From NCBI GenBank assembly GCA_902778375.1, contig CACYXJ010000002.1, forward strand, positions 14,231-78,230: a stretch of DNA of 64,000 bases, written 5' to 3'. This document shows positions 30,098 through 47,346 of the stretch, piece after piece. Origin of the DNA: an uncultured Erysipelotrichaceae bacterium (lineage in GTDB: Bacteria; Bacillota_I; Bacilli_A; Erysipelotrichales; Erysipelotrichaceae). The position numbers and the translations under genes are program-made. Each line of letters begins with the position of its first letter. Position 1 is the stretch's first letter. The notes beneath the pieces are model-generated. The model saw only the letters and a program-made list of their open reading frames with translations. It had not been told where the DNA came from and ran no database searches.

Positions 30098-32134
30098 ATG
30101 CTGCAAATCAGAGATAAAAAAGAAGATGTATACAGAAAGCACAAAACAGCATTCGCATGGCGTATTTTGTACTTCAGTGTCTGTTTCTTTTTTTTGTTTA
30201 CCGTTGAAGCAAACGCTTATATTGATCCGTCTGTCATGACCTATGCCATCCAGGCGATTGCCGGCATTGCGATTGCACTGGGTACATTTTTCAATATCTA
30301 CTGGCGCAGACTCTGGAAAAGAATAGGCTGGAACGGATTGTTTTCAACTAAATATGAAAAAACAGAATCCGATGAACTGTACTTTGATGACCCGGTGTCC
30401 CGGCAGCGAATCCAGCCGGAATACAAACCAGGAAATGACGTACAGGTTCAGAAGGAAAAAGAGCCGTTCCTTCGGAAACTGTGGAACGAGTACAAGTATG
30501 CGCTGATTCTTGCGGCGTGCGGAAGCTTCCTCATCATGATCTTCAGCCCGCTTGATCTGTATTTCAATAATATGAAGGACTTCTGGTTTGATTTTGGAAT
30601 TGTCTTCCCGATTCTGTTCAAATCATTTATAAAATGTTTCCTGACATTATCAGCGCTTTTCCTGGTATGCCTACTGCTGTTTGATGAACTGTATCATGTG
30701 GTCTATATCGGCGCTTTTGCGGCTTTTGTCTGCGCGTATATACAAGGAAACTTTCTGGCCGGAAAACTGCCGTCACTGGATGGTTCGGCGATCGACTGGT
30801 CACTTTATCACATACAGATGCTTCAGTCCAGATATCTGTGGAGCCTTTTGCCACTGGCTGTTTTATTGATTGCCCGGTTTGTCAGAATGAAGGGCTTTTA
30901 TAAGATTACAAAGTACGTGAATCTTCTGATTACGGCAATGCTTGCTGTATCCCTCCTGACAGTCGGAATCAGGAACAAAGGATTTTCGGACAAGAACTAC
31001 CGCATTGCCACATCCGATCATCTATTCGAAATGTCAGAGAAGCAGAATTTCATTATTCTGATGGTCGACGCTCTGGATGCCCGGATTTTTGGGCAGATCA
31101 TGCAGGAAAACCCTGAATACGCGGAATACTTTGAAGACTTTACATTTTTCCCGGATACTGTCGGAGCCTATACTTTTACGAGTTATGCGATGCCGCAGGT
31201 TCTGACAGGAGAATGGATGGAAAACCAGACGGATTACCAGACCTATTTTTCCGAGGCGATGGACAATTCTCCGTTGTTTGCGGATCTGAAGGAGAAGGAT
31301 TACCGGATGGGTATGTATGAAACAAACCTGTATTATGACAGCGATAATATCTATCAGTTTGAAAACATCCATGACGCAGAAGTCGACTTTAAATCAAGAG
31401 ATGAATTCATGGAGACAGAAAAAGAACTGTTTATATTCAAATACGCACCGTATCAGCTGAAAAGAGATCATGTTCCGGATATGCTCACTTTTTACCGCAC
31501 TCAGCAGATCAACGGTGATATGGACATATTCTCGGACAACAACGAGAACTTTTATAATAAGATTCACTCCGAGCCGATTGTCATGACGCAGGACAAATGT
31601 TTCAAATTCATCCATATCGAAGGTGCTCATGTGCCGTTCCGCTATAACAAGGATGTGGAGCGGATCGATACAGAAGACGGTTCTTATGAACAGAACGTAC
31701 TATGCAGCATCACGATCATGAATGCGTATCTGAGCGCTCTGAAAGAAGCAGGTGCTTATGACAATACGGCAATTATCATAATGGGAGACCATGGATTCAA
31801 TTATGACAATGATGAATACTGGGGTCGCTGGAATCCCGCACTTCTGGTCAAAGGCATTGACGAGCATCATGAGTATACTGAATCACTGGCACCGCTTTCC
31901 TTTGATGATCTGCAGGAAGCATACAGAAGACTGGAAGAAGGACAGCCAGCAGAGGCGTGTTTCGATGCTGAAGAAGGCGATATGAGAGAACGCCGGTATA
32001 TGCATTTTATCCGGGAAGCAAAAATCACCGAATACATACAGACCGGTTATGCGGCGGATGAAGAAACACTTGTTCCCACAGGAAGGGTTTTTGAAAGAGC
32101 CGTCGATTATCTGGCAGAATTCCATATCAACTGA
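30098..32134 (+). CDS. LtaS/EptA-like membrane alkaline-phosphatase-superfamily transferase, paralogue 1 (YIDPS module)
   Basis: Signal-like N-terminus, YIDPS-TM, ~5 TMs, then 'VDALD', 'FTSYAMPQVLTG', 'HIEGAHVPF', 'MGDHG'. Confidence 0.75.
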   Translation: MLQIRDKKEDVYRKHKTAFAWRILYFSVCFFFLFTVEANAYIDPSVMTYAIQAIAGIAIALGTFFNIYWRRLWKRIGWNGLFSTKYEKTESDELYFDDPVSRQRIQPEYKPGNDVQVQKEKEPFLRKLWNEYKYALILAACGSFLIMIFSPLDLYFNNMKDFWFDFGIVFPILFKSFIKCFLTLSALFLVCLLLFDELYHVVYIGAFAAFVCAYIQGNFLAGKLPSLDGSAIDWSLYHIQMLQSRYLWSLLPLAVLLIARFVRMKGFYKITKYVNLLITAMLAVSLLTVGIRNKGFSDKNYRIATSDHLFEMSEKQNFIILMVDALDARIFGQIMQENPEYAEYFEDFTFFPDTVGAYTFTSYAMPQVLTGEWMENQTDYQTYFSEAMDNSPLFADLKEKDYRMGMYETNLYYDSDNIYQFENIHDAEVDFKSRDEFMETEKELFIFKYAPYQLKRDHVPDMLTFYRTQQINGDMDIFSDNNENFYNKIHSEPIVMTQDKCFKFIHIEGAHVPFRYNKDVERIDTEDGSYEQNVLCSITIMNAYLSALKEAGAYDNTAIIIMGDHGFNYDNDEYWGRWNPALLVKGIDEHHEYTESLAPLSFDDLQEAYRRLEEGQPAEACFDAEEGDMRERRYMHFIREAKITEYIQTGYAADEETLVPTGRVFERAVDYLAEFHIN

Positions 32135-32194: not shown

Positions 32195-33091
32195 ATGAGC
32201 CTGACAAGGAAACAGTTTGATGTTCTGGAAGTATTGGCCACATCAGAAGAGACTCTGACGCAAAGAGAACTTGAGGCTGACACCGGACACAGTCTGGGAA
32301 CGGTAAACCGTATTCTCAAAGAATTGAATGAACTTGGTTATGCCGGAAACGGAAAGATCACCAATGCCGGCATGACAGCTTTGGAACCATATCGTGCGAA
32401 AAGAGCGGTTTTTATTGCGGCCGGATTTGGTTCCCGCCTTGTTCCGATTACTTTCAATACTCCCAAACCTCTGATTCGTGTTCAGGGTGTTCGCATTATT
32501 GACCGTCTGATTGATGCATGTCTGGAAGTTGATATTGATGATATTTACATTGTCCGCGGACATCTCGGAGAACAGTTCGACCAGCTTCTCTATAAATATC
32601 CGATGATCAAGTTTCTGGAAAATCCTATGTATAACGAGACAAACAATATCTCCAGTTCCTTGGTCGCGCGGTATCTGCTTTCCAACGCATATGTGTTCGA
32701 AGCAGATCTTCTGATATCCAATCCAAAGATTATCAGGAAGTATCATTACACTTCCGACTTCCTGGCAATCAAAAAGGAACGCAGCGACGACTGGTGCCTT
32801 CGGGTCAGAAACGGTGTGATCGTTGAAGAAATGGTCGGCGGAGAAGGCGACGATATCTGGCAGATGGTCGGTATATCTTACTGGAATGAAGCAGACGGCA
32901 ATATGCTTGCCCAGGATATCCAGGAGGTATATGCATCTCCCGGCGGAAAGGAACGTTATTGGGAACAGGTGCCGCTGGTATACAGAAAAGAGCGGTATGC
33001 TGTCAGGGTTCAGGAATGCTTTGAATCAGATGTCGTGGAAATCGACACCTTTACCGAACTGAAGGCAATTGATAAAACATACGACGTGTAA
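32195..33091 (+). CDS. Winged-helix + LicC-type cytidylyltransferase
   Basis: wHTH 'LTQRELEADTGHSLGTVNRILKEL'; NTase 'AAGFGSRL.P.T...PKPL', 'NNISS', 'EADL', 'DDW', 'GISYW', 'YWE', 'EIDT'. Confidence 0.85.
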   Translation: MSLTRKQFDVLEVLATSEETLTQRELEADTGHSLGTVNRILKELNELGYAGNGKITNAGMTALEPYRAKRAVFIAAGFGSRLVPITFNTPKPLIRVQGVRIIDRLIDACLEVDIDDIYIVRGHLGEQFDQLLYKYPMIKFLENPMYNETNNISSSLVARYLLSNAYVFEADLLISNPKIIRKYHYTSDFLAIKKERSDDWCLRVRNGVIVEEMVGGEGDDIWQMVGISYWNEADGNMLAQDIQEVYASPGGKERYWEQVPLVYRKERYAVRVQECFESDVVEIDTFTELKAIDKTYDV

Positions 33092-33176
33092 ACCTGGCAA
33101 TTTGTGACAGTTGACATCAGATCAAGGAACGATTGTTCAAAATTTCAAATATTTCTTCTAAAATGGAACATATATA

Positions 33177-33250
33177 TTGACGTTTATAGTTTGCGTTATT
33201 AAAATTATGTTCAGTTCTTGTTAAAAACACAGTTCAACGTGAACTGTGTT
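33177..33250 (+). promoter_or_regulatory. Sigma-A promoter of the ABC operon and downstream 11-3-11 palindrome
   Basis: TTGACG (33177-82), 17 bp, TAAAAT (33200-05); AACACAGTTCA-acg-TGAACTGTGTT (33226-50). Confidence 0.7.
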
Positions 33251-33340
33251 ATGTGTTTCTGAAAAGGATATGTATCAAAACGTGTTCAAAACAGGCGGTA
33301 AGCACAGGCAAGAAGGAAAAAAAGCAGGAGAATTAACGTT

Positions 33341-34384
33341 ATGAAAAAGAAAAACATGAGCATGGCTGCGTTTCTGTGCAGTGCGGCACTTGTACTGACA
33401 GGCTGCGGTTCTTCCAACAGTGCGTCCGGTACTGAACCGGCTTCCAGCGGCGGAAAAGACCGCGTAGTCATCTATACAGCTGCTGAAGATGAGCGGATTG
33501 AATATATTCAGCAGGAACTTGATAAGCAGTTCCCGGATACTGAAATCGTGATTCAGTCGCTTGGAACAGGCCAGCTTTTATCGAAACTGCAGGCAGAAGG
33601 TACAAACAGCGACTGTGATATCTTCTATGATCTGGAAGTTGTGAATGCGGAAATCATTCTGAACGCATCTCCGGATCTGTTCGCGGATCTTTCCGAATAT
33701 GACTTCTCTATTTACGATGCGTCTGTTACCGGCTATACTGATCGTCATCACCAGTATGCAGTCAACGGCAAGACAGCTGGTGCGTTCCTGGTCAATACCA
33801 AGGTTCTGGAAGAGAAAGGTCTTCCGGTTCCGGAAACATATGAAGACATGCTGAAGCCCGAATATGCCGGTCTGATCTCAATGCCGAGTCCCAAGTCTTC
33901 CGGAACGGGTTACAGCTACTACAACGGAATGGTTACTGTTCTTGGTGAAGAAGCAGGTATGAAGTACTTCGATGACCTGAACCCGAACATCAAGGAATAT
34001 ACAACTTCCGGTTCTGCTCCGGCAAAGGCAGCTGTCCGCGGTGACGTCGCAATTGCTTACGGTCTGCTCTGGCAGTGTGTCAACTATGCCAACGAGAATG
34101 AAGGGCTGAAAGTCATCATTCCTGAAAACGGGCTTGCCTTCGATCTGTTTACCATGGGCATGATTTCCGGTCATGAAACAAAAGGCAGCGTCAAGGAAGT
34201 GTTCACTTATCTGTATAACGAACTGAACAAGCCGCAGTGTGCGAAGTTCAATCCGGATAAGATCTACGTAGATATGCCGGCTGCTGAAATTGCAAACTAC
34301 CCGGAAAGCTATGCAGAGATTACCATGAACGGTCTGTTCGATTTCAACTATAAACAGAATCTGCTGGATCAGTGGAAATACTGA
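33341..34384 (+). CDS. ABC substrate-binding lipoprotein, Fe3+/sugar-phosphate/2-aminoethylphosphonate class
   Basis: Lipobox 'LTGC'; 'VIYTAAE', 'GLPVPETYEDMLKPEY.GLISMPSPKSSGTG', 'YTTSGSAP'. Confidence 0.82.
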   Translation: MKKKNMSMAAFLCSAALVLTGCGSSNSASGTEPASSGGKDRVVIYTAAEDERIEYIQQELDKQFPDTEIVIQSLGTGQLLSKLQAEGTNSDCDIFYDLEVVNAEIILNASPDLFADLSEYDFSIYDASVTGYTDRHHQYAVNGKTAGAFLVNTKVLEEKGLPVPETYEDMLKPEYAGLISMPSPKSSGTGYSYYNGMVTVLGEEAGMKYFDDLNPNIKEYTTSGSAPAKAAVRGDVAIAYGLLWQCVNYANENEGLKVIIPENGLAFDLFTMGMISGHETKGSVKEVFTYLYNELNKPQCAKFNPDKIYVDMPAAEIANYPESYAEITMNGLFDFNYKQNLLDQWKY

Positions 34385-34403
34385 TTTCTTAAGAAAGGCT
34401 CAG

Positions 34404-34431
34404 GAATAGCAGGGATGCCTGCTATTCTTTT
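34404..34431 (+). terminator. Hairpin/partial terminator between SBP and ATPase genes
   Basis: GAATAGCAGG-gatg-CCTGCTATTC followed by T run. Confidence 0.6.
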
Positions 34432-34470
34432 CTTAATTATGTCTTTATGAAATACCAGGAGGAAACAACA

Positions 34471-35229
34471 ATGGCAGAACCTATTATTCAGGCAGTCAAT
34501 ATAAGTAAAAAATTCAAGTCCAAAACGGTCCTGGAAGATATTTCCTTTGATATCATGCGGGGAGAATTCCTGTCCCTGCTGGGACCTTCAGGATGCGGCA
34601 AAACAACGATTCTGCGCATGCTGATCGGTATTGAACAGCCTACGGCTGGCAAGATATTGAAAGACGGCGTGGATATCACAAATGCTGCACCGAAAGACAG
34701 AAACATCGGTATCGTTTTCCAGAATTATTCTTTGTTCCCGAATATGGACGTTTACCATAATATTTCCTATGCACTCAGCGCAAAGAAAATGGGAAAGGAA
34801 GAGATTGACAAAAAGGTCAAGGAAATCATCGAAACTGTCGGACTTGAAGAACATATCTATAAAAAACCAAAACAGCTTTCCGGCGGCCAGCAGCAGAGAG
34901 TGGCTATCGCCAGAACGCTGGTTCTGAATCCGGACGTGATTCTGTTTGACGAGCCGATGTCAGCTCTTGATGCGGAAATCAAAGTCATTCTGCGTCAGCA
35001 GCTGAAAGAGATTCAGAAGAAGCTGAAAATAACGATGGTGTATGTCACTCATGACCAGGAAGAAGCGTTTGCGCTTTCCGACCGCATCATGGTACTGAAC
35101 GACATGCGGATCATACAGATGGATACACCGTATAACCTTTATCACAACCCGACCGATCCGTTCGTAAAGCGGTTTGTCGTCGATCATCTTGATTTGAAAG
35201 TCAAATCGATAGAGGACAGCATCAAATGA
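34471..35229 (+). CDS. ABC ATP-binding protein (PotA/FbpC class, no TOBE tail)
   Basis: 'GPSGCGKT', 'LSGGQQQR', 'LFDEP', 'VTHD'; GGAGG before ATG 34471. Confidence 0.9.
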   Translation: MAEPIIQAVNISKKFKSKTVLEDISFDIMRGEFLSLLGPSGCGKTTILRMLIGIEQPTAGKILKDGVDITNAAPKDRNIGIVFQNYSLFPNMDVYHNISYALSAKKMGKEEIDKKVKEIIETVGLEEHIYKKPKQLSGGQQQRVAIARTLVLNPDVILFDEPMSALDAEIKVILRQQLKEIQKKLKITMVYVTHDQEEAFALSDRIMVLNDMRIIQMDTPYNLYHNPTDPFVKRFVVDHLDLKVKSIEDSIK

Positions 35230-37796
35230 ACACGCAGATCAATCGTGCCGGCAGAATCATCAAGCATGAATACCTGAGGCTCATATCAATAGGATGTATT
35301 CTGCTGTTTGCCATTCTGCCGCTGCTGACACTGGCATTTCATGTGACCGGGGAGGACTGGAGTTATATTCTGCAGGATGCAACATTCTGGGCAGCTGTCA
35401 AAAATTCCCTGATCTATACGACTGCAGCAGCCGTGACCACCACGGTGCTTGCCCTGGTTGCGGCATATCTGCTGAATACATCAAGTCTGAAGAGGAAAAA
35501 CCTGTTTGTCATTCTTCTGACACTTGGCATGCTTGTACCGACGATTTCCGTCGGTCTTGGTCTGAGAGTGCTTTTCGGTACAAACGGGTTTATCGATCTG
35601 CTTTTCGGGGCGGAGATCGAAGTCAGAGGCTTCTCAGGGCTGATCATGGGTTCAGTAATGACCTCGTTCCCGGCAACGTTTTTGATTCTCTATGATGCCC
35701 TGAACTATGAAGACAAGGGACCTTATGATGCAGCAAGCATCATGGGCATCGGCCGGCTGAGCACTTTCTTCCGAATGACCGTTCCCTATCTCAAGATTGC
35801 CTTGATTTCAGCTTTCTTTGCCTGTTTTACGCTGATCTTTTCCGACTATGGAATGCCGATGGAAATTGCCGGTAAGGTAAGCACCTTACCGATGTATCTT
35901 TACGATCAGTTCATGAGTAGCTTTCAGTATGGAAGAGGTTCGATTGCCGGCTTTGTTCTGCTGGTGCCTTCCATTGTTTCCTTTGTATTCGATTTGATCT
36001 TCAAGGATCAGAGTGAAAGCGAAAAGCAGAAAAAACTGATCGAAGCGGAAAAGAGTTTCAATATCGGCACAGCCGTGGTCATTACGCTGCTGTGCCTGGT
36101 TCTTTTCCTGCCGCAGCTGGCATTTATCAGCCTGTCTCTGACAAGGGCATTCCCGAACGATCTGTCGTTCACCTTTGAACACATTGCAAATATCTTCTCG
36201 AACACACACGGAGTGGGCCTGACGGCGTATATCTGGAATTCCCTGTCGCTGTCACTGCTTACGGCACTGTTCGGTACCGCATTTGCCTATCTGCTCGGTT
36301 ATCTGAGTGTCAGAAAAAGCGGCAGAATGGCAAAGGTCGTCAACCTGCTGGCATTGAGTACGATTGCTATTCCCGGTCTGGTACTGGGTATCGGTTTTAT
36401 CTTCCTGTTCAAGGGGACAAACGGCTATTTCTATGGGACCGTTCTGATCCTGGTTGTCGTGAATATCTTCCATTTCCTCGGATCACCGTATCTTCTGGCA
36501 AAGAACTGTCTCAGCAAGATCAACAGTGATTATGAGATTATCGGTGAGACACTGGGGATTTCCAAGGGACAGATCATCAGAAATGTTCTGATTCCCAATT
36601 CAGTGTCCACTCTGGTTGAAATGTTCTCGTATTTCTTCCTCAACAGCATGATTACGATCTCGGCTGTTGCCTTCCTGTGCAGTTATGACAACCAGCCGCT
36701 GTCCATCCTCATCACAACATATGAGAAAAACAGCAACTACGAGATGCAGAGCGTTATTTCTCTGATCATTCTGTTCCTCAACGTTGTAGCCCGGACCGGA
36801 TTTACGGCAATTGCAAACACATTACGTAACGCTGAAGCTAAAGAAGTTGACGGCGGCATCGGTCTTGAACGCCATGAATTTGATTTCCTGACATATCTGG
36901 AGAAACAGGGCAGAGGGCAGTACAGTCTTAGAAAAATGGCTGATGATCTGACAATTTCCCTGAATAACGTACAGAAATATCTGAAAGAGCTGAACGACAG
37001 GAACTATATCAATATTTTTGCGGACGGCAGTATTGAAATCAGCGAAAAAGGACTTAAGGCGCTTGAACCGTACAGAGTCCGCAAGGCAATCATCCTGGCA
37101 GCCGGCTTCGGTTCCAGACTGGCTCCGGTCACGCTGGATACACCTAAGTCGCTGGTCAAGGTCAACGGAGAAAGAATCATCGATACATTACTTGATGCTC
37201 TGGTTGCCAAGGGTATTACCAACATCACAATTGTCAGAGGCTACAAAAAGGAACAGTTTGATGCCTTGCTGGAGAAGTATTCTACGATCCGGTTCATTGA
37301 CAATCCGGAATACAACATCACCAACAATATTTCTTCCGCTGTCTGTGCAGCTGACCTGATTGACCGTTGCTATATCTGCGAAGCTGATCTGTATATCACC
37401 AATCCGGATGTCATAAACAAATATGAATATCAGTCCAATTATCTCGGGGCAAAGGTATCCGAAACGGATGACTGGTGCTTCAAAAAGATTAACGGTGCGG
37501 TTGCGGATTATCAGATGGGCGGTACAGACTGCTATCAGGCATTCGGTATCTCATACTGGAACAGTGAGGATGCGGAAAAACTGAAAGCAGACCTCCGCAA
37601 GGTATACGCCAGCAGAGGCGGCAAGGAAAACCTCTGGGAAATCGTACCGCTGAGAATCATGAAAAAGAAGTATCATCTGGAAGTCCGCAAATGTCATAAG
37701 AGCGACATTATCGAAATCGACAACTTTATCGAACTGATAGCGGCAGACAGTTCATATGCCCATTATCCGGGATATGAAGGTTTCCGGGTAGAATGA
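35226..37796 (+). CDS. Fusion: double ABC permease + winged helix + LicC-type cytidylyltransferase
   Basis: Two EAA-like loops ('DAASIMG', 'IIGETLG'); then 'YSLRKMADDLTISLNNVQKYLKEL'; then 'AIILAAGFGSRL', 'NNISS', 'EADL', 'DDW', 'GISYW', 'EIDN'. Single uninterrupted ORF. Confidence 0.85.
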   Translation: MNTQINRAGRIIKHEYLRLISIGCILLFAILPLLTLAFHVTGEDWSYILQDATFWAAVKNSLIYTTAAAVTTTVLALVAAYLLNTSSLKRKNLFVILLTLGMLVPTISVGLGLRVLFGTNGFIDLLFGAEIEVRGFSGLIMGSVMTSFPATFLILYDALNYEDKGPYDAASIMGIGRLSTFFRMTVPYLKIALISAFFACFTLIFSDYGMPMEIAGKVSTLPMYLYDQFMSSFQYGRGSIAGFVLLVPSIVSFVFDLIFKDQSESEKQKKLIEAEKSFNIGTAVVITLLCLVLFLPQLAFISLSLTRAFPNDLSFTFEHIANIFSNTHGVGLTAYIWNSLSLSLLTALFGTAFAYLLGYLSVRKSGRMAKVVNLLALSTIAIPGLVLGIGFIFLFKGTNGYFYGTVLILVVVNIFHFLGSPYLLAKNCLSKINSDYEIIGETLGISKGQIIRNVLIPNSVSTLVEMFSYFFLNSMITISAVAFLCSYDNQPLSILITTYEKNSNYEMQSVISLIILFLNVVARTGFTAIANTLRNAEAKEVDGGIGLERHEFDFLTYLEKQGRGQYSLRKMADDLTISLNNVQKYLKELNDRNYINIFADGSIEISEKGLKALEPYRVRKAIILAAGFGSRLAPVTLDTPKSLVKVNGERIIDTLLDALVAKGITNITIVRGYKKEQFDALLEKYSTIRFIDNPEYNITNNISSAVCAADLIDRCYICEADLYITNPDVINKYEYQSNYLGAKVSETDDWCFKKINGAVADYQMGGTDCYQAFGISYWNSEDAEKLKADLRKVYASRGGKENLWEIVPLRIMKKKYHLEVRKCHKSDIIEIDNFIELIAADSSYAHYPGYEGFRVE

Positions 37797-37824
37797 CACG
37801 TCGGTTCTGTTACAAAGCATATTG

Positions 37825-37848
37825 GCCATGGTGAAAACCATGGCTTTT
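37825..37848 (+). terminator. Terminator after the ABC operon
   Basis: GCCATGGT-gaaa-ACCATGGC-TTTT. Confidence 0.7.
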
Positions 37849-37956
37849 CTGATGATTTAAGTATGTTAATAGTTTGGAAAAAAGAGTAAGTTTCGTTTAC
37901 CTTACTGCATACTGTGCGGTAAAATGAAGCGGATACAACAAAAGAAGGAGTTGAGT

Positions 37957-38658
37957 ATGACAAAAGCAATTTTAATGGCAGCAGGTCTGGGTACGAGAAT
38001 GAGACCGCTGACAGAAACGATGCCGAAGCCGATGATAGAGGTGAACGGTACACCGATGGTCGAAACTGTTGTAAAGGGACTTCTGGAAAACAATGTCGAC
38101 AAACTGTATGTTGTTGTCGGCTATCTGAAGGACAAATTCGCGCCTCTGGCGGAGAAGTATCCTGAGATTGTCCTTGTCGAAAATACCGAATATACCATCA
38201 AGAACAATATTTCTTCGATTCACGCAGCAGCAGATTACATGCATGGGGATGATTTCTTTATCTGTGAAGCAGATCTGTATGTATCGGATCCTTCTATCTT
38301 CGCAATTCCGCATAAACAGTCCTGCTATTATGGCGTCATGGTGAAAGGCCATTCCGATGACTGGGTATTTGATCAGGATGAAAACGGACGGATCATCCGT
38401 GTCGGTAAATGCGGAGATGATGTATATAACATGTGCGGTGTTTCCTGGTTCAACCAGAACGATATTGAGACTCTGCGTGACTGCATTCTGAAAGAATATG
38501 AAAATGAAGGACACGAGCAGCTTTTCTGGGATGATGTTGTTGACAGGAATCTGGATGTTCTGAATCTGACAGTATGTCCGATCGACAGAAAGCAGATCAT
38601 CGAACTGGATACTGCTGATGAACTGTATGAATTTGAAAAAACACTGAACAAGGATTAG
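37957..38658 (+). CDS. licC: LicC-type choline/ethanolamine-phosphate cytidylyltransferase
   Basis: 'KAILMAAGLGTRMRPLTETMPKP', 'GYLKDKF', 'GVSWF', 'FWDDVV', 'ELDT', closely resembling pneumococcal LicC; AAGGAG before ATG 37957. Substrate not proven. Confidence 0.75.
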   Translation: MTKAILMAAGLGTRMRPLTETMPKPMIEVNGTPMVETVVKGLLENNVDKLYVVVGYLKDKFAPLAEKYPEIVLVENTEYTIKNNISSIHAAADYMHGDDFFICEADLYVSDPSIFAIPHKQSCYYGVMVKGHSDDWVFDQDENGRIIRVGKCGDDVYNMCGVSWFNQNDIETLRDCILKEYENEGHEQLFWDDVVDRNLDVLNLTVCPIDRKQIIELDTADELYEFEKTLNKD

Positions 38659-38674: not shown

Positions 38675-40150
38675 ATGAGTACAAACAAAAATGACAAACA
38701 GCCGGGTCTGCAGAGACAGCTGAGTCCGATGCATGTATGGGCAATCGCCTTTGGATGCATTATTGGCTGGGGCTCCTTTGTAAACCCGGGCAAAAAGTTT
38801 CTTCCTAATTCCGGTGTAGCCGGAACTGCAATTGCCATGGTGCTTGGTGCACTGGTCATGATGGTCATTGCCTGCAGTTATGCCTACATGGTTCCGAAAT
38901 ATCCGAAAGCCGGCGGCGAGTTTACCTTTACCAAGGCCTGCTTCGGCAAACGGGCGGCATATGTCTGCGGCTGGTTCCTGGTTGCGGCATATCTGACCAA
39001 TGTTCCGATGAATTCCACCGCAATCGGACTGATCGTGGACGGTCTGGACGGAGCTGCGGATATTCTGAAATTCGGATTTCATTATACGATTGCCGGCTTT
39101 GACGTCTATATGGGAGAGATGCTGTTCGCAATGTCGATTCTGGTGTTGTTTGGCTGGCTGAATATTGTCGGTGTCAAAAAGGCCGGCTTTGTTCAGACCG
39201 TATTGGCTGCATTGCTGGCATTATCAGTCGGCACGCTGACCATCGCAGCAATTATCAGTTCCAAGACTAGTACTGCCAACATGGCTCCGCTCTGGGGTTT
39301 TGACAAAGCATCCGCGATTGCGGCATACAAAGCCGGAACCTATACCGGAGTGGATGAATTTGCCAATACCAATATCATGTCGGCGATTCTGGCAACCTTT
39401 GCCATTGCACCATGGGCATATGTCGGCTTCGACACGATTCCCCAGGCAGCGGAAGAGTTCAAATTTTCCTATAAAAAAGTCAGCATGATCATGGTTGTTG
39501 CCATTGTCTTCGGCTGCTTTGTCTATACGGCAAACAATACGATTACTGCAGCTGCCCTGGAGAACTGGCCGGATCTGATCGTTGAATCGTCTTCCACTCC
39601 GTGGCTGCTTCTGGCTGCGGCGGAAAGACTTCTGGGGACACCGGGCAAAATTCTTGTTGGCGTTGCTGTGTCGTGTGCAGTTCTGTCGGGTATTATGGGA
39701 TTCTATCTTGCGTCAAGCCGTCTGATGTATTCCATGAGCAGAGACGGATATCTTCCTGATTTCTTCGGAAAGATCGATGAAAAACACGGAACCCCGAAAA
39801 ATGCGATGCTGTTCTGTATCGCTGTATCCCTGACCGGACCGGTTCTCGGCCGTGAGGCACTGGGCTGGTTTGTGGATATGTCCGCGATCGGAGCATCGAT
39901 CGGCTTCATGTTCACCTGCATGTCGACAATCGTTACCATGAAGCGCAATCAGGACAGGAGTCCGTTCCTGAAATGGATGGCTGTCCTTGGTGCGACATTC
40001 TCACTGGCGTTTATTGTTCTGCAGCTGGTTCCGATTCCGGGACTGGAAGGGGTACATTTCGGCGGGGAATCCTATGTACTTCTGGTCGTCTGGATCGTAT
40101 TGGGAATTATGTTTTATATCTATCAGGTTGATGAAATCAACGCATCATAA
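38675..40150 (+). CDS. APC-family amino acid/amine permease
   Basis: 'AFGCIIGWG', 'PKAGGEF', 'WAYVGFD', 'ASSRLMYSM', ~12 TMs. Confidence 0.85.
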   Translation: MSTNKNDKQPGLQRQLSPMHVWAIAFGCIIGWGSFVNPGKKFLPNSGVAGTAIAMVLGALVMMVIACSYAYMVPKYPKAGGEFTFTKACFGKRAAYVCGWFLVAAYLTNVPMNSTAIGLIVDGLDGAADILKFGFHYTIAGFDVYMGEMLFAMSILVLFGWLNIVGVKKAGFVQTVLAALLALSVGTLTIAAIISSKTSTANMAPLWGFDKASAIAAYKAGTYTGVDEFANTNIMSAILATFAIAPWAYVGFDTIPQAAEEFKFSYKKVSMIMVVAIVFGCFVYTANNTITAAALENWPDLIVESSSTPWLLLAAAERLLGTPGKILVGVAVSCAVLSGIMGFYLASSRLMYSMSRDGYLPDFFGKIDEKHGTPKNAMLFCIAVSLTGPVLGREALGWFVDMSAIGASIGFMFTCMSTIVTMKRNQDRSPFLKWMAVLGATFSLAFIVLQLVPIPGLEGVHFGGESYVLLVVWIVLGIMFYIYQVDEINAS

Positions 40151-40260: not shown

Positions 40261-42375
40261 ATGGGCTTTTTGGGACAGATACTGGGACCGTTCATGAGTT
40301 TTTGTTACAATCTGACAAAAAACTACGGCCTGGCAATTATATTATTCACTCTGATCAGTAAGTTTATTCTGCTTCCGATTTCGGTGTGGGTGCAGAAAAA
40401 CTCGATTACCATGGTGAAGATCGAGCCGGAAGTCAACCGGATCAAGATCAAGCATTTTGGTGACAAGGATACAATTGCTGAAGAACAGCAGAAACTTTAT
40501 AAAAAGGAACATTATAATCCGCTGGCATCCCTCGTACCGCTGATCGCCCAGATTGTTTTGCTGATGGGTGTTGTCGAGGTTATTTATCATCCTCTGGATT
40601 ATGTCCTGCGGGTACCGCAGCCGGTTGCTCAGGACATGATGAAAGTGACTCTGGAGAATGTGGATTTCCTGGATGAAGAATCCAGTTCGATTCAGATCTA
40701 TACAGTAGAGGATATTCAGGCGGGAAATGAAGCCGATTATCTGCAACTGCAGGAAAAATACCCGGATACGGATCTGCAGCCTGTCATCGATTCCTGTAAG
40801 AACTTCAATATGAAATTCCTGGGAATCGATCTGGGATGGATCGCATCTGAGGTCGGCGGTATTGCCCTGATTGCTCCGCTGCTGGCGGGTCTTTCCTCCC
40901 TGCTGCTGGCAATTGCCCAGAACAAAATCAATCCGTTGCAGGCAGAGCAGTCCAACGCCAATAAATACGGCATGCTGGCATTTTCTGTTGCGCTGTCGTT
41001 ATATCTTGGCATGTTTGTTCCGGCCGGTGTCGCACTTTACTGGGTTGCCAGCAACCTGATGGCGATCATCCAGCAGTGGCTGATGAACAAAGCCATTAAT
41101 CCGGAGAAATATGTTGACTATGAAGCTTTGGAGTCGACACGCGAAGAACTGAAATCGCTGTCCGGCGGAGACAAGAAACTGAAATTCAACGATCCGCTGG
41201 CGAAACGTGCGAAAGCAGACTATAAACGTTTCTTCTCGATCGAAAACAAGCACCTTGTTTTCTATTCAGAAAGCAACGGTTTCTATAAATACTTCAAGGG
41301 TATGATCGAATATATCCTGAAGTATACGAATATTCCTGTTCATTACATCACCAGTGATCCGAACGACCAGATCTTTGAACTGGCAAAAGAGAATGATCAG
41401 ATCAAGCCGTACTTCATCGATCCAATCACACTGATCACATTGATGATGAAGATGGATGCAGATGTTGTCGTCATGACAATGCCTGACCTTGAAACGTATC
41501 AGATCAAACGTTCCTATGTCCGCAAGGATATTGAATATATCAATATTTCCCATGGAATGGGATCCCTGAATATGACTTTCCGTAAGGGTGCCCTGGATCA
41601 TTTCGACACAGTATACGCATCCGGAAAGCATCAGAAGGAAGAACTGGAGAAACAGGAAGAATTCTATCATCTCCCGAAGAAGAATATTTTCGAAGGCGGC
41701 TATCCGCTGCTCGATGACATGCGGGCCAGTTATGCTGCTTCAGAAAAGCCGGTTCATGAGAAAAAACAGATTCTGATTGCTCCGTCATGGCAAAAGGACA
41801 ATATCGTTGACAGCTGTCTGGACGAAATTCTCGAGCAGTTGAAAGGACATGGCTATCAGATCACGGTCCGTCCGCATCCGCAGCATGTACGCCATATGCC
41901 GGAAAAGATGGAAGCGCTCAAGCAGAAGTTTGCCAACGATCATGATATTGAGATCCAGACCGACTTCTCCAAAACCAGCAATGTCTTTGAGGCCGATCTG
42001 ATGATTACCGACTGGTCGGATATTTCCCACGAATTTGCCTATACGACATACAAACCGGTTCTCTTTATCGATACTCCGATGAAGGTCATGAATCCGGAAT
42101 ATCAGAATATCGATACAGTTCCGATCAACATCTGGGTAAGAGATGAAATCGGTATGGTTGTCGGACTGGATAAACTGGACGAAATACCTGAAAAGGTTGA
42201 ATACATGCTGTCGCATACAGAAGAGTATCATGAGCGCATTGATAAACTTGCGCACGAATATGTATATCACCTTGACGAAAGTGTGCCTTATGATGCCCGC
42301 TATATTATCGAGGCGGTATTCAGAAAAGTAGAAGAAAGAAACGGTGTAAAAGCAGAAAATGTACAGACTGCTTAA
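40261..42375 (+). CDS. Fusion: YidC/Oxa1 insertase + TagF-like (CDP-glycerol glycerophosphotransferase-type) domain
   Basis: YidC 'NYGLAIILFTLISKFILLP', 'EEQQKLYKKEHYNPL', 'GVALYWVASN'; TagF-like 'SHG', 'GYP.LD', 'APSW', 'RPHP', 'DLMITDWSDI'. Confidence 0.82.
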   Translation: MGFLGQILGPFMSFCYNLTKNYGLAIILFTLISKFILLPISVWVQKNSITMVKIEPEVNRIKIKHFGDKDTIAEEQQKLYKKEHYNPLASLVPLIAQIVLLMGVVEVIYHPLDYVLRVPQPVAQDMMKVTLENVDFLDEESSSIQIYTVEDIQAGNEADYLQLQEKYPDTDLQPVIDSCKNFNMKFLGIDLGWIASEVGGIALIAPLLAGLSSLLLAIAQNKINPLQAEQSNANKYGMLAFSVALSLYLGMFVPAGVALYWVASNLMAIIQQWLMNKAINPEKYVDYEALESTREELKSLSGGDKKLKFNDPLAKRAKADYKRFFSIENKHLVFYSESNGFYKYFKGMIEYILKYTNIPVHYITSDPNDQIFELAKENDQIKPYFIDPITLITLMMKMDADVVVMTMPDLETYQIKRSYVRKDIEYINISHGMGSLNMTFRKGALDHFDTVYASGKHQKEELEKQEEFYHLPKKNIFEGGYPLLDDMRASYAASEKPVHEKKQILIAPSWQKDNIVDSCLDEILEQLKGHGYQITVRPHPQHVRHMPEKMEALKQKFANDHDIEIQTDFSKTSNVFEADLMITDWSDISHEFAYTTYKPVLFIDTPMKVMNPEYQNIDTVPINIWVRDEIGMVVGLDKLDEIPEKVEYMLSHTEEYHERIDKLAHEYVYHLDESVPYDARYIIEAVFRKVEERNGVKAENVQTA

Positions 42376-44341
42376 AACGACATTCAAATATCTGTATTTC
42401 TCAGCAGCATTCCTGCTTCTTTTCACCGTTCCTGTTCAGGCTTATATCGATCCTTCGGTCATGACATATGCCATCCAGGCACTTGCCGGTATCGCGATCG
42501 CTCTGGGTACATTCTTCGGTCTTTACTGGCGTAAGATCCGTAAGCCGGTACTGAAATTCTTTAACCTGGATGAAACCGTCGGACGTGAAGAAGAATCGGA
42601 TGAACTTGTCTTTTTCGATCCCTCTGTGATGAAGGAAGAAAAACGGATCATTCTGCCGAAGACTGCCGAAGGAAAGACTTCCGAGGACAGAAAGAAAGGA
42701 AAACTGCGGGAAATTGCAGAAGATATGATACCGGCGCTGTTTATTACGCTGTCCGGTTGCTTCATGGTGTGTATCTATGCACCGCTGGATCTATTCTTCA
42801 ACAATAAGAATGAATTCTGGTTCAATGCCGGCATTCTGGTGCCGCAGCTGATCCGTATGTTCTGTATGTTTGTGCCGGCTGTGCTGCTGATATACCTGCT
42901 TTGCCGGCTGATCAGCAAAAAGGTTTATTCCGGCGCTCTGTTTATTTCCACAGCTGCATTTATCTGCTCGTACATACAGGGCAATTTCCGCATCAGGAAT
43001 CTGCCGCCGATGGACGGTTCGTCTGTTGACTGGACGATTTATGACACAGAAAATGCCATTACGGCAATAATATGGGTCATTGTGATTACTGCTCTTCTGT
43101 ATGTTTACAAGTATGTCAGGGATAAAGGATTTAAAGCTGTTGTCGAAGTGGTAAGCTGTCTGCTGCTTGTAATTCTTTCCGTTTCTCTCTTTACTTCCTA
43201 TCTGGGCTCCCGGAATATTGTGGAGAAGAGCGTGTTCGTTTCTACCAAGGACCATGAGTTTGAGGTATCCGATACAGAGAATTTCTTTATTCTGGTGGTG
43301 GATGCCGTGGATGCCGACCGATATGCTGATGTATTCAACAGTCATCCTGAATATCAGGAATGGTTCGAAGATTTCACATTCTTCCAGAATGTCACCAGTA
43401 TCTATCCGTTTACATCCAGAGCCATTCCGCAGATTCTGACCGGAGAAGTCTATGAAAACGAAATGGACTTCACGGAGTTTGTCACCCAGGCTATGGACAG
43501 GTGTCAGTTCTTTCAGACACTGGAAAATGACGGTTACCGGATGGGAATATATGAATGCGAACTGCCATATAACGGCGACAAGCTTCACCGGTTTGAAAAT
43601 ATGAAAACCGACGATGTCGATCTGAATCCGGCTGCGAAAAACACCTTCATCAAAGAACAGTTCAAACTGACACTGTTCAAGTACCTGCCGTACTACTTCA
43701 AGAAATTCATTCACTGCAACACAAACAGTTTTTCCAGCATGATCTGGCCGGAACCGTTCCTGATGGTCAACCGTGATTTCTATGAAGATCTGCTGGAAGA
43801 CAATGTCGGGCATACAGGCGATAAGGTTTTCCGTTATTACCATGTGGAAGGCGGACATGTACCGTTTGTCTATGACAAGGATGTAAATTCGATTCCTGAG
43901 GAAGAAGGTACATACCGTCAGAACGTGGAAGCCAGCATGACGATTGCCGGTGCTTTTGTAAACAAGCTGAGAGAGGCTGGGGTTTATGATAACGCGACCA
44001 TTATTATCATGGCCGACCATGGATACAGCGATGATGTCGGCGGAATTATGGACCGTTTCAATCCGCTCCTGATGATCAAGAGTTTCGGAGAGAAACATCC
44101 GTATGCAGTATCCCAGGCGCCGCTTTCCTATGTGGATCTTCCGGAAGCGTATAACCGGCTGCTGGAGCATAAAACTGCTGAAGAATGCTTTGATGCCCGG
44201 GAAGGCGACGCAAGAGTCAGAAGACTGCTGTGGCTTGAATGGCTGAAAGAAGAATACATGGTTGAATACTATCAGGACGGTTATGCATCGGATTATCAGA
44301 ATATCAAACCGACCGGTAAAGAATTCAGATTGGAGCAGTGA
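42359..44341 (+). CDS. LtaS/EptA-like membrane transferase, paralogue 2 (YIDPS module)
   Basis: 'VQA|YIDPSVMTYAIQ', 'VDAVD', 'FTSRAIPQILTG', 'HVEGGHVPF', 'MADHG'; overlaps the yidC fusion by 17 bp. Confidence 0.75.
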   Translation: MYRLLKTTFKYLYFSAAFLLLFTVPVQAYIDPSVMTYAIQALAGIAIALGTFFGLYWRKIRKPVLKFFNLDETVGREEESDELVFFDPSVMKEEKRIILPKTAEGKTSEDRKKGKLREIAEDMIPALFITLSGCFMVCIYAPLDLFFNNKNEFWFNAGILVPQLIRMFCMFVPAVLLIYLLCRLISKKVYSGALFISTAAFICSYIQGNFRIRNLPPMDGSSVDWTIYDTENAITAIIWVIVITALLYVYKYVRDKGFKAVVEVVSCLLLVILSVSLFTSYLGSRNIVEKSVFVSTKDHEFEVSDTENFFILVVDAVDADRYADVFNSHPEYQEWFEDFTFFQNVTSIYPFTSRAIPQILTGEVYENEMDFTEFVTQAMDRCQFFQTLENDGYRMGIYECELPYNGDKLHRFENMKTDDVDLNPAAKNTFIKEQFKLTLFKYLPYYFKKFIHCNTNSFSSMIWPEPFLMVNRDFYEDLLEDNVGHTGDKVFRYYHVEGGHVPFVYDKDVNSIPEEEGTYRQNVEASMTIAGAFVNKLREAGVYDNATIIIMADHGYSDDVGGIMDRFNPLLMIKSFGEKHPYAVSQAPLSYVDLPEAYNRLLEHKTAEECFDAREGDARVRRLLWLEWLKEEYMVEYYQDGYASDYQNIKPTGKEFRLEQ

Positions 44342-44350
44342 AGAAATAAC

Positions 44351-46330
44351 ATGAGAAAAATGCTGAAAAGCGGAATACGGTATGTTTATTTTTCAACAGC
44401 CTTTCTGTTTCTTTTCACAATCCAGGCAAATGCATATATTGATCCTTCTGTCATGACCTATGCAATTCAGGCGCTTGCCGGTATTGCGATTGCATTAGGC
44501 ACATTCTTCGGACTGTACTGGCGAAAGATCCGGAAACCGATTCTTCACTTCTTTAATCTGGATGAAACCGCCGGAAGAGAAACAGAATCGGATGAACTGT
44601 ATTTTTATGATGCTTCCTGTATGAAGGAAGAAAGGCGTATCACACTGTCTTTGGACAGTCCGGATAAAAAGTCTGTAAAGGATAAAGGAAAGTTCGGACA
44701 GATTCTTTCCGACCTTGTACCGGCACTGTTCATTACTCTTTCCGGATGCTTTATGCTGTGTATCTGTGCGCCGCTGGATCTGTATTTCAACAATAAGAAT
44801 GAATTCTGGTTCAATACAGACATTCTTGTTCCGCAGCTGATCCGCATGATGTGCATGATTGCACCGGTTGTGCTTCTGGTGTATCTGCTGATCCGGCTCA
44901 TCAACAAAAAAGCATATTATATTTCTCTTGTCGTTTCTGTGATTGCCTTTGTATGTTCCTATATTCAGGGAAATTTCCGCATCAAAAATCTGCCTCCGAT
45001 GGACGGCTCTTCTGCCGACTGGTCACGCTATACAGGCGAGAACATCATAACGCTGCTGATATGGATTGCTGTCGGAACAATAGTGGTATGGATTTACCGG
45101 AAGGTAAAGGACAAAGGTTTTGCGTCCGTTGCGGAAGTGGTCAGTGTGCTGATGGCGGTTATTCTTTCCATTACACTTGTAACAACTGCCATTGGATCCA
45201 GAAATGTTATCAAGAAAGCATTGTATGTAGCAACAAAGGACGGTGAATTCAAAGCCTCAAAGCAGGATAATCTGTTTATTCTGGTTCTGGATGCGCTGGA
45301 TGCGTATACCTATGATGAAGTGGCACTTGCTCATCCGGAGTATAAAGAATGGTTTGCGAATTTTACGTATTATCCGAATACGACCAGCGTGTTTCCGTTT
45401 ACGACCCGCTCCATACCGCAGATGTTGACGGGAAAGATTTTCGAAAACGAAACGGACTTTACAGAATACAGCACGGATGCACTGGACAATGCGGAATTCC
45501 TGCGGCATCTTGAAGAACGCAATTATCAGATCGGTATTTATGAAACCGAATTATCCTATAACGGAGATAAACTGTCCCGTTTTGAAAACATCCGGACAGA
45601 TGATGTTGAACTGAACATGGCTGCGAAGAACACCTTTATCAAGGAACAGTTCAAGCTTGTTCTCTTCAAATATCTCCCGTACTGTTTCAAGCAGTATGTT
45701 GACTGCAATACCAACAGTTTTATCAGTATGATCTGGCCGCCGCCGTTCCGTACGGACAACTGGGATTTTTACAATGATATCCATACAGCGGAAACCGAAT
45801 ATATCGACCAGAACAATTTCCGGTTTATTCACGTGGAAGGAGCACATGTGCCTTTCAGATATGACAAGGATATGAACTGGATTTCTGAAGACGAGGGATC
45901 ATATTACAAAAATATCGAAGCGAGCATGACGCTTGCCAATGCATATATTCAGAAACTGAAAGATGCCGGAGTGTATGATAATTCCGCAATCATTATCATG
46001 GCTGACCACGGCTCCAGAATTCTTGATGAAGAGGAAGATGAATTATACAAATTCAATCCGATCTTCATGGTCAAGGGAATCGGAGAAAATCATGAGTACC
46101 GTGTCGATCAGGCACCGCTCTCCTATGAAGATCTGATCGAATGCTATGAAAGGCTGATGGATCATAAGCCCGCATCAGAATGTTTTGACTGGAAAGAGGG
46201 AGATCACCGTGTCAGACGGCTGATCTGGTCGGCATGGCTGCAGGAAGACCACATGATCGAATATACATTGGACGGACATGCTTCAGAATTTGAAAAAATG
46301 GAACCGACAGGAAGAGAATTCAACCGATAA
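44351..46330 (+). CDS. LtaS/EptA-like membrane transferase, paralogue 3 (YIDPS module)
   Basis: 'ANA|YIDPSVMTYAIQ', 'LDALD', 'FTTRSIPQMLTG', 'HVEGAHVPF', 'MADHG'. Confidence 0.75.
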   Translation: MRKMLKSGIRYVYFSTAFLFLFTIQANAYIDPSVMTYAIQALAGIAIALGTFFGLYWRKIRKPILHFFNLDETAGRETESDELYFYDASCMKEERRITLSLDSPDKKSVKDKGKFGQILSDLVPALFITLSGCFMLCICAPLDLYFNNKNEFWFNTDILVPQLIRMMCMIAPVVLLVYLLIRLINKKAYYISLVVSVIAFVCSYIQGNFRIKNLPPMDGSSADWSRYTGENIITLLIWIAVGTIVVWIYRKVKDKGFASVAEVVSVLMAVILSITLVTTAIGSRNVIKKALYVATKDGEFKASKQDNLFILVLDALDAYTYDEVALAHPEYKEWFANFTYYPNTTSVFPFTTRSIPQMLTGKIFENETDFTEYSTDALDNAEFLRHLEERNYQIGIYETELSYNGDKLSRFENIRTDDVELNMAAKNTFIKEQFKLVLFKYLPYCFKQYVDCNTNSFISMIWPPPFRTDNWDFYNDIHTAETEYIDQNNFRFIHVEGAHVPFRYDKDMNWISEDEGSYYKNIEASMTLANAYIQKLKDAGVYDNSAIIIMADHGSRILDEEEDELYKFNPIFMVKGIGENHEYRVDQAPLSYEDLIECYERLMDHKPASECFDWKEGDHRVRRLIWSAWLQEDHMIEYTLDGHASEFEKMEPTGREFNR

Positions 46331-47330: not shown

Positions 47331-47346
47331 AAGGTAAGTGATGGAG

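Follow-up and report, generated by a model that had tools for sequence, protein, structure and literature searches.

A double ABC permease fused to a winged helix and a LicC/PntC-type cytidylyltransferase in a predicted wall-polymer locus of an uncultured Erysipelotrichaceae bacterium

A transporter and a predicted metabolic enzyme are joined in one polypeptide in an uncultured Erysipelotrichaceae bacterium. The DNA analyzed (the window) is a stretch of 64,000 nucleotides (nt) from contig CACYXJ010000002.1 of assembly GCA_902778375.1. Within it, a single open reading frame (ORF) of 856 amino acids (aa) at 35226-37796 (+ strand) spans a double ATP-binding cassette (ABC) permease, a linker, a winged helix-turn-helix (wHTH) domain and a LicC/PntC-type nucleotidyltransferase (NTase). 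The fusion is genuine and selected. As to its function, we lean toward import-coupled activation, in which the importer takes up a phosphorylated or phosphonylated head group and the tethered NTase activates it with cytidine triphosphate (CTP), a proposal to which we give slightly better than even chances.

The fusion is encoded by one conserved reading frame

The first 529 aa of the protein (35226-36812, + strand) form the double permease, with 12 transmembrane (TM) segments in an N-in/C-in arrangement and closest likeness to PhnU2 (TIGR03262, 298 bits). A cytoplasmic linker of 15 aa follows (aa 530-544; 36813-36857, + strand), variable in sequence, constant in length and interrupted by a stop codon in no ortholog. 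The winged helix (aa 545-616; 36858-37073, + strand) was modeled with a predicted local distance difference test score (pLDDT) of 82-90 and has an acidic helix 3 and wing. The rest of the protein is the cytidylyltransferase (aa 617-847; 37074-37766, + strand), recognized by its signature residues, its matches to 1jyk and 6pd1, and its fold. Pfam searches returned two BPD_transp_1 domains (aa ~40-535) and an NTP_transferase/NTP_transf_3 domain (aa 620-736; 45.7 and 37.4 bits, above cutoff), while the fused wHTH gave an HTH_45 match over aa 570-618 that stayed below threshold (18.2 bits against a cutoff of 25.5).

Two other proteins of the window resemble the C-terminal part. A free wHTH-LicC paralog of 298 aa (32195-33091, + strand; MarR_2, 35.5 bits against a cutoff of 27) aligns over its aa 1-296 with aa 545-844 of the fusion at 46% identity (E 1e-89), and the alignment begins exactly where I545 of the fusion pairs with Met1 of the free protein. 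A third LicC-type NTase without a wHTH, here called LicC3 (37924-38658, + strand), which gene callers start at 233 aa, is 37% identical to aa 620-837. The original prediction, made from the sequence alone, had described a double permease running without a stop into a wHTH and NTase that match the free protein from end to end, and this description was correct in every detail that could be checked. It had also seen no in-frame Met or ribosome-binding site at the junction and had judged a lost stop codon unlikely. Both points were borne out: there is no in-frame ATG, GTG or TTG and no Shine-Dalgarno-like motif between codons 507 and 571, stops block both other reading frames across 36780-36900, and the same single ORF is kept across orthologs and assemblies. 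An internal start that would yield a separate wHTH-LicC protein was rejected, since the same codons offer neither an in-frame start nor a Shine-Dalgarno motif.

The domain architecture (two BPD_transp_1 domains, wHTH and NTP_transferase), for which a search had been suggested at the outset, recurs in protein clusters and in genomic loci. At least 120 protein clusters carry the fusion. The best 120 (90% clustering) were all 843-875 aa long and 79-100% identical, with 98-100% query cover and with Pfam domains of permease and NTase alike; those named at their source were called "ABC transporter permease subunit" only. A scan of one genome per species gave 34 fusion loci, and every one of the 29 with the whole gene had an uninterrupted ORF (852-874 aa, 56-86% identity). 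A metagenome scan added another intact fusion (L043, 69% identity), which brought the intact orthologous loci to 30. Carriers were mostly metagenome-assembled genomes (MAGs) from the ruminant gut, and the identical protein was annotated as one gene in two independent assemblies. The junction was also checked at contig level with Logan contigs from three unrelated metagenomes (bovine gut, soil and food production). These contigs crossed it with 0, 14 and 33 substitutions, mostly at third codon positions, and with no indels. The original prediction would have been undermined by orthologs consistently split at the junction; no split ortholog was seen among those examined, and only remote homologs are split. 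Mean conservation among orthologs was 34% for the linker (aa 536-546 in the alignment), 55% for the wHTH, 70% for the permease and 77% for the NTase, the most conserved part of the protein. An artifact, whether assembly chimera, sequencing frameshift or recent pseudogene-like read-through, is negligibly probable, because the single ORF is conserved (30 intact orthologs from many studies and more than 120 clusters), junction contigs are free of indels and show a pattern of purifying selection, and the other frames are closed; a lost stop is rejected on the same grounds.

The module formed by the fusion and its partner genes for a substrate-binding protein (SBP) and an ATPase retains about 80% protein identity between MAGs labeled Lachnospiraceae, Oscillospiraceae, Ruminococcaceae, Solobacterium/Erysipelotrichaceae and "Prevotella" (L001-L033). 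This suggests either recent horizontal spread among rumen bacteria or errors of binning and labeling. Identity at this level between MAGs labeled as different Firmicute families would imply, if the labels hold, horizontal spread in the rumen and a selective value there.

A catalytic domain assigned to the LicC/PntC family by signature and fold

The fused catalytic domain, a GT-A-like NTase (PF12804/PF00483), is assigned to the LicC/PntC family by its signature, its modeled fold and its metal ligands. The AlphaFold (AF2) model was confident over aa 549-850 (pLDDT 82-93). Its top Foldseek match was Streptococcus pneumoniae LicC (1jyk; E 1.5e-14, TM-score 0.86, root-mean-square deviation 2.7 Å, 30% identity), followed by PntC-AEPT (6pd2); these alignments cover the NTase alone, and Foldseek found no solved precedent for a wHTH joined to an NTase. 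Sequence searches matched the domain to 1jyk (E 3.7e-25, 92.3 bits) and 6pd1 (E 7.7e-12, 48.6 bits). The motif AAGFGSRL (aa 625-632) and K641 were invariant in 46 sequences, both paralogs included, as were E719-A-D721, W750, W804 and E830-x-D832 in fusions and paralogs. Two of these elements, E719-A-D721 and E830-I-D832, align with the metal-binding motifs of S. pneumoniae (Spn) LicC (xADxY, and Glu216 in YEID), where Glu216 has a metal-binding role (PMC6697681). By these residues the NTase looks catalytically competent. Spn-LicC and Ari-PntC are monomers and active as such (PMC6697681), and therefore a single tethered copy per transporter can be active. The heterodimers with the soluble wHTH-LicC that had been proposed earlier are thus not required for catalysis.

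Substrate specificity in this family has been linked to two published positions, which are Glu/Glu in the AEP-preferring PntC, where the pocket is also smaller, and Asp/Asp in the phosphocholine-preferring LicC. The first (Tde E104, Spn D105) is Glu in every ABC-associated copy. The second (Tde E196, Spn D192) is Glu in the window protein and Asp in several fused orthologs (L029, P0121), and an attempt to read the substrate from the pair was abandoned because of this variation. The choline aromatic box of the fused NTase has lost two Tyr (NNISS, LW) and kept two Trp.

Remote relatives encode the transporter and wHTH-LicC as neighboring genes

The three-part architecture extends to more distant proteins. 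It is kept in P0121 (53% identity; 50% clustering), and in P0175 (29% identity) a permease is followed by a significant HTH_24 match and NTP_transf_3. Starting from P0123, a relative that consists of the permease alone, we reached metagenome loci (L044-L053) with the order wHTH-LicC-choline kinase (603 aa), SBP, ATPase, permease, wHTH-LicC, glycosyltransferases and LicD. In these operons the permease ends in a stop at 533 aa and shares 34-36% identity with the membrane part of the fusion; a gap of 8-22 nt with GGAGG separates it from a wHTH-LicC gene whose 295-aa product is 57% identical to the free protein of the window. This Rosetta-stone relation, in which adjacent separate genes of one SBP-ATPase-permease operon correspond to the parts of the fusion, supports a functional link between transporter and wHTH-LicC. 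Because distant operons hold the two as adjacent separate genes, the fusion arose within one operon. It would have been born by loss of the stop and start between the neighboring permease and wHTH-LicC genes, an origin that fits the alignment of I545 with the former Met1.

Other combinations of the same modules were also found. They include chains of about 890 aa with two NTases, arranged as wHTH-LicC-choline kinase-wHTH-LicC (P0125, P0128, P0195, and 13499-16186 on the - strand of L029), a kinase-LicC protein (P0163), and a member of the same permease family fused to LicD (P0172). These architectures make the LicC enzyme module a frequent fusion partner in the Lic pathway.

The transporter operon and its candidate substrate

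Two genes precede the fusion in its operon. The first encodes a substrate-binding lipoprotein (SBP_bac_6; 33341-34384, + strand) and is followed by an intra-operon hairpin (34402-34429, + strand) with a 12-bp stem and then a T-rich tract. The second encodes a PhnT2/PotA-like ABC ATPase of 260 aa (34447-35229, + strand), and its stop overlaps the ATG of the fusion (ATGA). A terminator-like hairpin detected in a sequence scan ends the operon (37824-37845, + strand). The gene order SBP-ATPase-permease was kept in every complete locus examined, and all parts of a type-I importer are present, namely the lipoprotein SBP, the ATPase gene and the 12-TM double permease. A hydropathy scan of the permease gave a clear positive-inside pattern with both termini inside, so the appended domains are expected to be cytoplasmic. 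Against its profile, the ATPase covers positions 4-244 of 353; the regulatory domain found at the C terminus of PhnT2/PotA/MalK-type subunits is missing, which should leave room beneath the nucleotide-binding domains. Foldseek matched the membrane part to FbpBC (9j4r), in a region where the model has low confidence (pLDDT <50).

The best families for the three transporter parts were PhnS2 (169 bits against an NCBIfam equivalog cutoff of 393), PhnT2 (332 against 458) and PhnU2 (298 against 593), and for the permease and SBP the 2-aminoethylphosphonate ("2-AEP") families were best by a wide margin. Since these scores sit under the equivalog cutoffs, "2-AEP" is the nearest label only. The solved structures nearest to the SBP are AfuA, which binds sugar phosphates, and P5PA, which binds pyridoxal phosphate. 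The proven 2-AEP binders AepX and AepS belong to PF13343, which is also the Pfam family of the SBP (PMC8316502). Within the 64-kb window we found no choline kinase, no phosphoenolpyruvate (PEP) mutase (Ppm), no phosphonopyruvate decarboxylase (Ppd) and no PhnX, and the flanks of most fused loci contained no choline kinase. The gene for a PhnW/AepZ-like class-V aminotransferase (149 bits, cutoff 361) follows 10 kb downstream.

We tentatively regard 2-aminoethylphosphonate (AEP) as the leading candidate for the imported head group, with a chance somewhat short of even, because of the resemblance of the transporter families, the Glu at the Tde-PntC E104 position and the ecology of the rumen. Phosphoethanolamine and phosphocholine are the alternative candidates. 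The first isolation of AEP, from rumen protozoa, is attributed to Horiguchi & Kandatsu 1959, reference 8 in the list of PMC8942020. The compound has also been reported in rumen bacteria and feed, and was dropped as a protozoal marker for that reason (PMC4659874). Two bovine metatranscriptomes contained short contigs that match, at 88-100% identity, the regions of SBP, ATPase, permease and NTase. They hint weakly at transcription of the operon or of close relatives and are silent on the junction and the transcription start. One 257-nt contig of RNA run X21 covers 33104-33360, including sequence upstream of the predicted -35 element, and could reflect read-through from the upstream wHTH-LicC gene or carry-over of DNA.

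Import-coupled activation and an ordinary Lic pathway

In import-coupled activation, the SBP, ATPase and double permease would form a type-I ABC importer for a small head group that already bears a phosphate or phosphonate. The NTase, tethered through the ~15-aa linker and the wHTH as a spacer, would condense the incoming substrate with CTP to give a cytidine mono- or diphosphate (CMP/CDP) conjugate, so that the substrate would be trapped at the exit of the transporter without a kinase step. LicD-type transferases of the surrounding locus would then set the head group on surface polymers, and the free wHTH-LicC would act as a repressor or other regulator on YGTTCA-N24-26-TGAACR boxes flanking the operon promoter. 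That the substrate is phosphorylated or phosphonylated before uptake is suggested by the likeness to PhnS2/T2/U2, the organophosphate-binding relatives of the SBP, the lack of a kinase or Ppm gene in the 64 kb, and the fusion of the split-operon kinase to a different LicC copy. The phosphonate (PntC) logic differs from the choline (LicA-LicC) logic in having a kinase-free route (PMC6697681). Tethering supports proximity, a fixed 1:1 stoichiometry and metabolic trapping. We infer the substrate, the catalysis, the kinetic coupling and the binder of the box.

Several points weigh against this proposal. All three transporter scores lie below their equivalog cutoffs, the two published specificity positions fail to settle the substrate, and LicC-like enzymes may use other substrates, such as phosphoglycerate in CpgD. 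The AlphaFold model of the membrane part is unreliable (pLDDT <50), owing to a shallow alignment (only sequences of at least 79% identity). A kinase could be encoded outside the window; a choline kinase is, in fact, part of the split sister operons. Evidence from the metatranscriptomes is slender, and some of it may stem from DNA. Finally, the channeling of substrate from transporter to enzyme that the original prediction had drawn from the fusion does not, in its strict form, follow from tethering, and is at most something we infer.

The alternative that best survives is an ordinary Lic pathway, in which an unphosphorylated amine such as choline or ethanolamine is imported, a kinase encoded elsewhere phosphorylates it, the fused LicC comes into play only after that step, and the fusion merely fixes stoichiometry or co-expression. 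The choline kinase of the split sister operons is fused to another wHTH-LicC, and fusions of wHTH-LicC with a kinase are common in the family, as such a pathway would have it. That kinase goes with a different LicC copy, however, whose active-site motif is CSSD in place of [CF]E[AS]D, and neither the 64 kb nor the flanks of most fused loci hold a kinase. The ATPase scores highly against polyamine (PotA) models too; the SBP is closest to organophosphate and phosphonate binders. Taken together, we consider an ordinary Lic pathway unlikely.

The winged helices of the fused and free proteins

In the model, the fused wHTH consists of helices at aa 549-561, 568-575 and 579-591, strands at 595-597 and 603-605, and a last helix at 607-616 (pLDDT 82-90) that runs straight into strand 1 of the NTase. 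The original prediction had a DNA-binding domain tethered to the transporter. The wHTH fold is indeed present in the model, but the recognition helix and wing are acidic and diverged, and the domain falls below the Pfam threshold. The net charge of helix 3 plus wing was -1 in the window fusion and averaged -3.0 over 32 fusions, against a mean of -0.06 in free paralogs. The recognition helix [HY]SLGT[VI]N[RK] is conserved in free paralogs and lost from fusions of the window's clade, where it is diverged and variable (ISLNNVQKY in the window, ITLSNAARL in relatives). Fusions of a second clade (clade B, L023-L030) keep the family helix SLGT[IV]N[KR], and no free wHTH-LicC was found within 10 kb of them. 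Across the family, about half of the 50% representatives have plainly non-basic "recognition" helices. In one fusion (L014, 9989-12613), helices 2 and 3 of the wHTH are replaced by a Ser/Pro-rich segment about 19 aa longer, with permease and NTase intact. Relaxed constraint on the fused wHTH was not evident from identity ratios (wHTH/NTase 0.55/0.77 in fusions, 0.55/0.81 in free proteins); the informative signal lies in the differences in charge and helix motif. We conclude that the fused wHTH is probably not a DNA binder and more likely a retained structural spacer or adaptor remnant. The free wHTH-LicC, which passes the MarR_2 threshold, has the conserved recognition helix and is about neutral over helix 3 and wing, is a probable DNA-binding enzyme-regulator in the style of BirA, NadR and PurR. 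Apart from proteins of the wHTH-LicC type, no HTH protein is encoded consistently in these loci.

A candidate operator at the operon promoter

The SBP-ATPase-fusion operon is preceded by a sigma-70-like promoter, TTGACG-17-TAAAAT (33177-33205, + strand; 10/12 matches), and orthologous loci have TTGACA/TATAAT at the same place. Two copies of a "lic box" flank it. The upstream copy, GTTCA-N25-GGAAC (33135-33169), has one mismatch to TGAAC and ends 8 nt before the -35 element. The second, GTTCA(33209)-N26-TGAAC(33240), starts right after the -10 element, and its region (33209-33250) includes a perfect 11-3-11 inverted repeat, AACACAGTTCA-ACG-TGAACTGTGTT, at 33226-33250. Loci and window together (692 kb) contained the composite YGTTCA-N24-26-TGAACR 34 times, where shuffled sequence gave 4.3 +/- 1.8; 27 of the 34 copies lie just upstream of the SBP gene, 3 upstream of a free wHTH-LicC gene and 1 upstream of the wHTH-LicC-kinase gene of L029. 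In most related loci an A/T-rich stretch with TTGAAC stands ~8 nt upstream of the -35 element, YGTTCA follows the -10 element, and TGAAC comes ~30 nt later. Split operons (L044-L053) have the box in front of the wHTH-LicC-kinase gene and again in front of the SBP gene, and clade-B promoters carry GTTCA-N3-TGAAC plus the long box. GTTCA also recurs with a period of ~75 nt in these regions, which lie upstream of SBP and wHTH-LicC genes in the window, L001-L040 and L044-L053.

The box is a candidate operator and, by its distribution, a candidate regulon signature of a new enzyme-repressor family. Its core, an A/T-rich stretch followed by [TC]GAAC, resembles the B. subtilis PurBox, AWWWCCGAACWWT. 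A role as an RNA hairpin was also considered and is disfavored. Complementarity in the flanks of the box was enriched at the first position only (19/34) and at chance over positions 2-6, and one copy lies upstream of the -35 element; for these reasons a DNA operator is likelier than an RNA hairpin, though a weak RNA stem of 5-6 bp may form. Rfam identified no known RNA element in the whole window.

These boxes are central to a further explanation, in which the fusion is a membrane-anchored regulator ("transceptor") whose own wHTH binds them, so that its promoter would be informed of the flux of substrate or the occupancy of the NTase, in the manner of ToxR/CadC or PutA. Transporter, enzyme and transcription factor would then share one polypeptide that captures and releases boxes according to substrate flux, and in clade B it would be the sole regulator. 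Down to 29% identity no fusion has lost the wHTH, whose conservation relative to the NTase is like that in the free paralog, and clade-B fusions combine the family recognition helix with boxes at their promoters and no free wHTH-LicC within 10 kb. A free wHTH-LicC may, however, exist elsewhere in clade-B genomes, and the domain itself fits DNA binding poorly: helix 3 and wing are acidic in all fusions, the recognition helix is diverged in the window's clade and broken by the insertion in L014, the match falls under the Pfam threshold, and clearly non-basic helices occur in about half of the family representatives. We therefore hold a transceptor to be improbable, and the same holds for the three-in-one polypeptide as sole regulator of clade B.

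It is very improbable that the NTase acts mainly as a sensor, binding CTP or the CDP/CMP product and gating the transporter by trans-inhibition in place of a regulatory domain (cf. MalK, MetN and ModC). Such a role would suit an ATPase without a C-terminal regulatory domain, and sensors that combine a wHTH with an enzyme-like domain exist, such as PurR and NadR. The catalytic residues, though, are all invariant across fusions and paralogs, and no part of the protein is better conserved than the NTase (0.77); sensing and catalysis are, in any case, not mutually exclusive.

The surrounding locus

Judged by its gene content, the window is a large wall-polysaccharide or teichoic-acid locus, with genes for an initiating sugar transferase, a TarI-like cytidylyltransferase, RmlC/RmlD, several family-2 glycosyltransferases (GT2s), a flippase and an ABC-2 exporter. 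Next to LicC3 lies the gene for an APC-family permease of the amino-acid/ethanolamine type (38675-40150, + strand), which recurs beside wHTH-LicC or LicC3 in related loci. A LicD-family phospho-head-group transferase (51275-52183, + strand) is the presumed consumer of the CMP/CDP conjugate, and LicD is also encoded in related loci. These loci repeat a common set of genes: the SBP-ATPase-fusion module, free wHTH-LicC or LicC3, the APC permease, LicD, a YidC fusion and sulfatase-like genes.

The YidC fusion of the window is a 704-aa protein (40261-42375, + strand) that joins a YidC/Oxa1-type insertase (aa 22-277) to a TagF-like CDP-glycerol glycerophosphotransferase (aa 326-607). This unusual pairing is kept beside lic genes in L008 (95%) and in L016, L033 and L037 (44-46%). 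Three paralogs of about 660-680 aa (30098-32134, 42359-44341 and 44351-46330, + strand) have a multi-TM N terminus and a sulfatase/LtaS-like domain, and in L008, L033 and L037 they accompany lic genes. They may transfer phospho-head groups or polyol phosphates outside the membrane. Between rmlD and rmlC, near licD, are genes (47338-49724, + strand) for a PhnW/AepZ-like aminotransferase and then for a protein that joins a TagD-like cytidylyltransferase (PF01467) to a Gfo/Idh/MocA oxidoreductase. These could serve synthesis of a donor of the CDP-aminoglycerol or CMP-hydroxyethylphosphonate type. Farther upstream (18657-24180, + strand), three genes in a row look like a small anti-phage defense island beside the cell-wall locus; they code for a 620-aa protein with TerB_N and TerB_C domains, a 442-aa ATPase of the BrxC/BrxD family (E 1.8e-167) and a 774-aa DEAD/Lhr-like helicase.

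Relation to known systems

Literature searches bearing on the point turned up neither a cytidylyltransferase fused to an ABC permease nor a wHTH-LicC protein, and no import-coupled PntC. ABC importers with fused substrate-binding or regulatory domains are known; we found no description of a permease that bears the next metabolic enzyme. If import-coupled activation is correct, the fusion would offer a clean example from nature of an importer whose cargo is trapped chemically through nucleotidyl transfer, so that uptake would lead straight into the first step of decorating the cell surface. It would also be a first sign that bacteria can put on their surface phosphonate or phospho-head groups which they have scavenged and not made themselves, and decoration with scavenged phosphonate would explain the old reports of AEP in rumen bacteria.

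The closest relative of known function is the CTP:phosphocholine cytidylyltransferase LicC of S. pneumoniae (1JYK/1JYL), which shares with the fused NTase the fold, the G-rich loop, the Lys and the metal-binding acidic residues, and which feeds LicD-type transfer to wall polymers, as is proposed here. The pneumococcal enzyme is a free 229-aa monomer that acts after import by LicB and phosphorylation by LicA, whereas the fused NTase has an N-terminal wHTH and is joined to a permease; in addition, two Tyr of the aromatic box are replaced and Spn Asp105 has become Glu. PntC (Tde1415 PntC-AEPT, 6PD1/6PD2; Ari1348; PMC6697681) is LicC-like and kinase-free, converts AEP to CMP-AEP, and is habitually fused to a pathway partner. 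The fused NTase shares the Glu at the Tde E104 position, although it is less similar to PntC than to LicC (48.6 against 92.3 bits). The partners of known PntCs, by fusion or by gene clustering, are the biosynthetic enzymes Ppm and AEPT, whereas the partner here is an importer; with no Ppm or Ppd in the window, scavenging rather than synthesis is therefore implied. The PntC paper (PMC6697681) makes no mention of transporters or uptake.

Among transporters, the PhnS2T2U2/AepSTU importers (TIGR03261/03265/03262; PMC8316502) likewise have a double permease in a single polypeptide and a PF13343 SBP. They feed AEP catabolism (PhnW/PhnX) in Proteobacteria, and none has been reported with a permease-fused enzyme; the transporter of the window would work like them but, because the equivalog thresholds are missed, is not assignable to them. 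FbpBC (9J4R) and ThiP have the same 12-TM double BPD_transp_1 layout, but without a cytoplasmic enzyme domain.

As for the coupling of uptake to an HTH-nucleotidyltransferase, the analogy to NadR and PnuC drawn in the original prediction is apt as logic. NadR of Enterobacteria combines an HTH, a nucleotidyltransferase and a kinase; by acting enzymatically on what the dedicated transporter PnuC brings in, it drives and regulates that uptake, and its protein family also represses genes of the pathway. NadR is soluble and only functionally coupled to PnuC, it performs adenylyl transfer in NAD salvage, and its sequence kinship to the present proteins is that of a generic HTH alone. The free wHTH-LicC follows the logic of BirA and B. 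subtilis PurR, in which a wHTH is fused to an enzyme or enzyme-like domain: it has an N-terminal wHTH, a domain that handles nucleotides, and palindromic boxes as candidates for autoregulation. There are also weak Pfam matches to wHTH-PRTase_assc. The half-sites of the present boxes differ in lying about 30 bp apart. A box common to the transporter operon and the wHTH-LicC genes across distant clades offers a handle on what is probably a new enzyme-repressor family of the BirA/NadR/PurR type.

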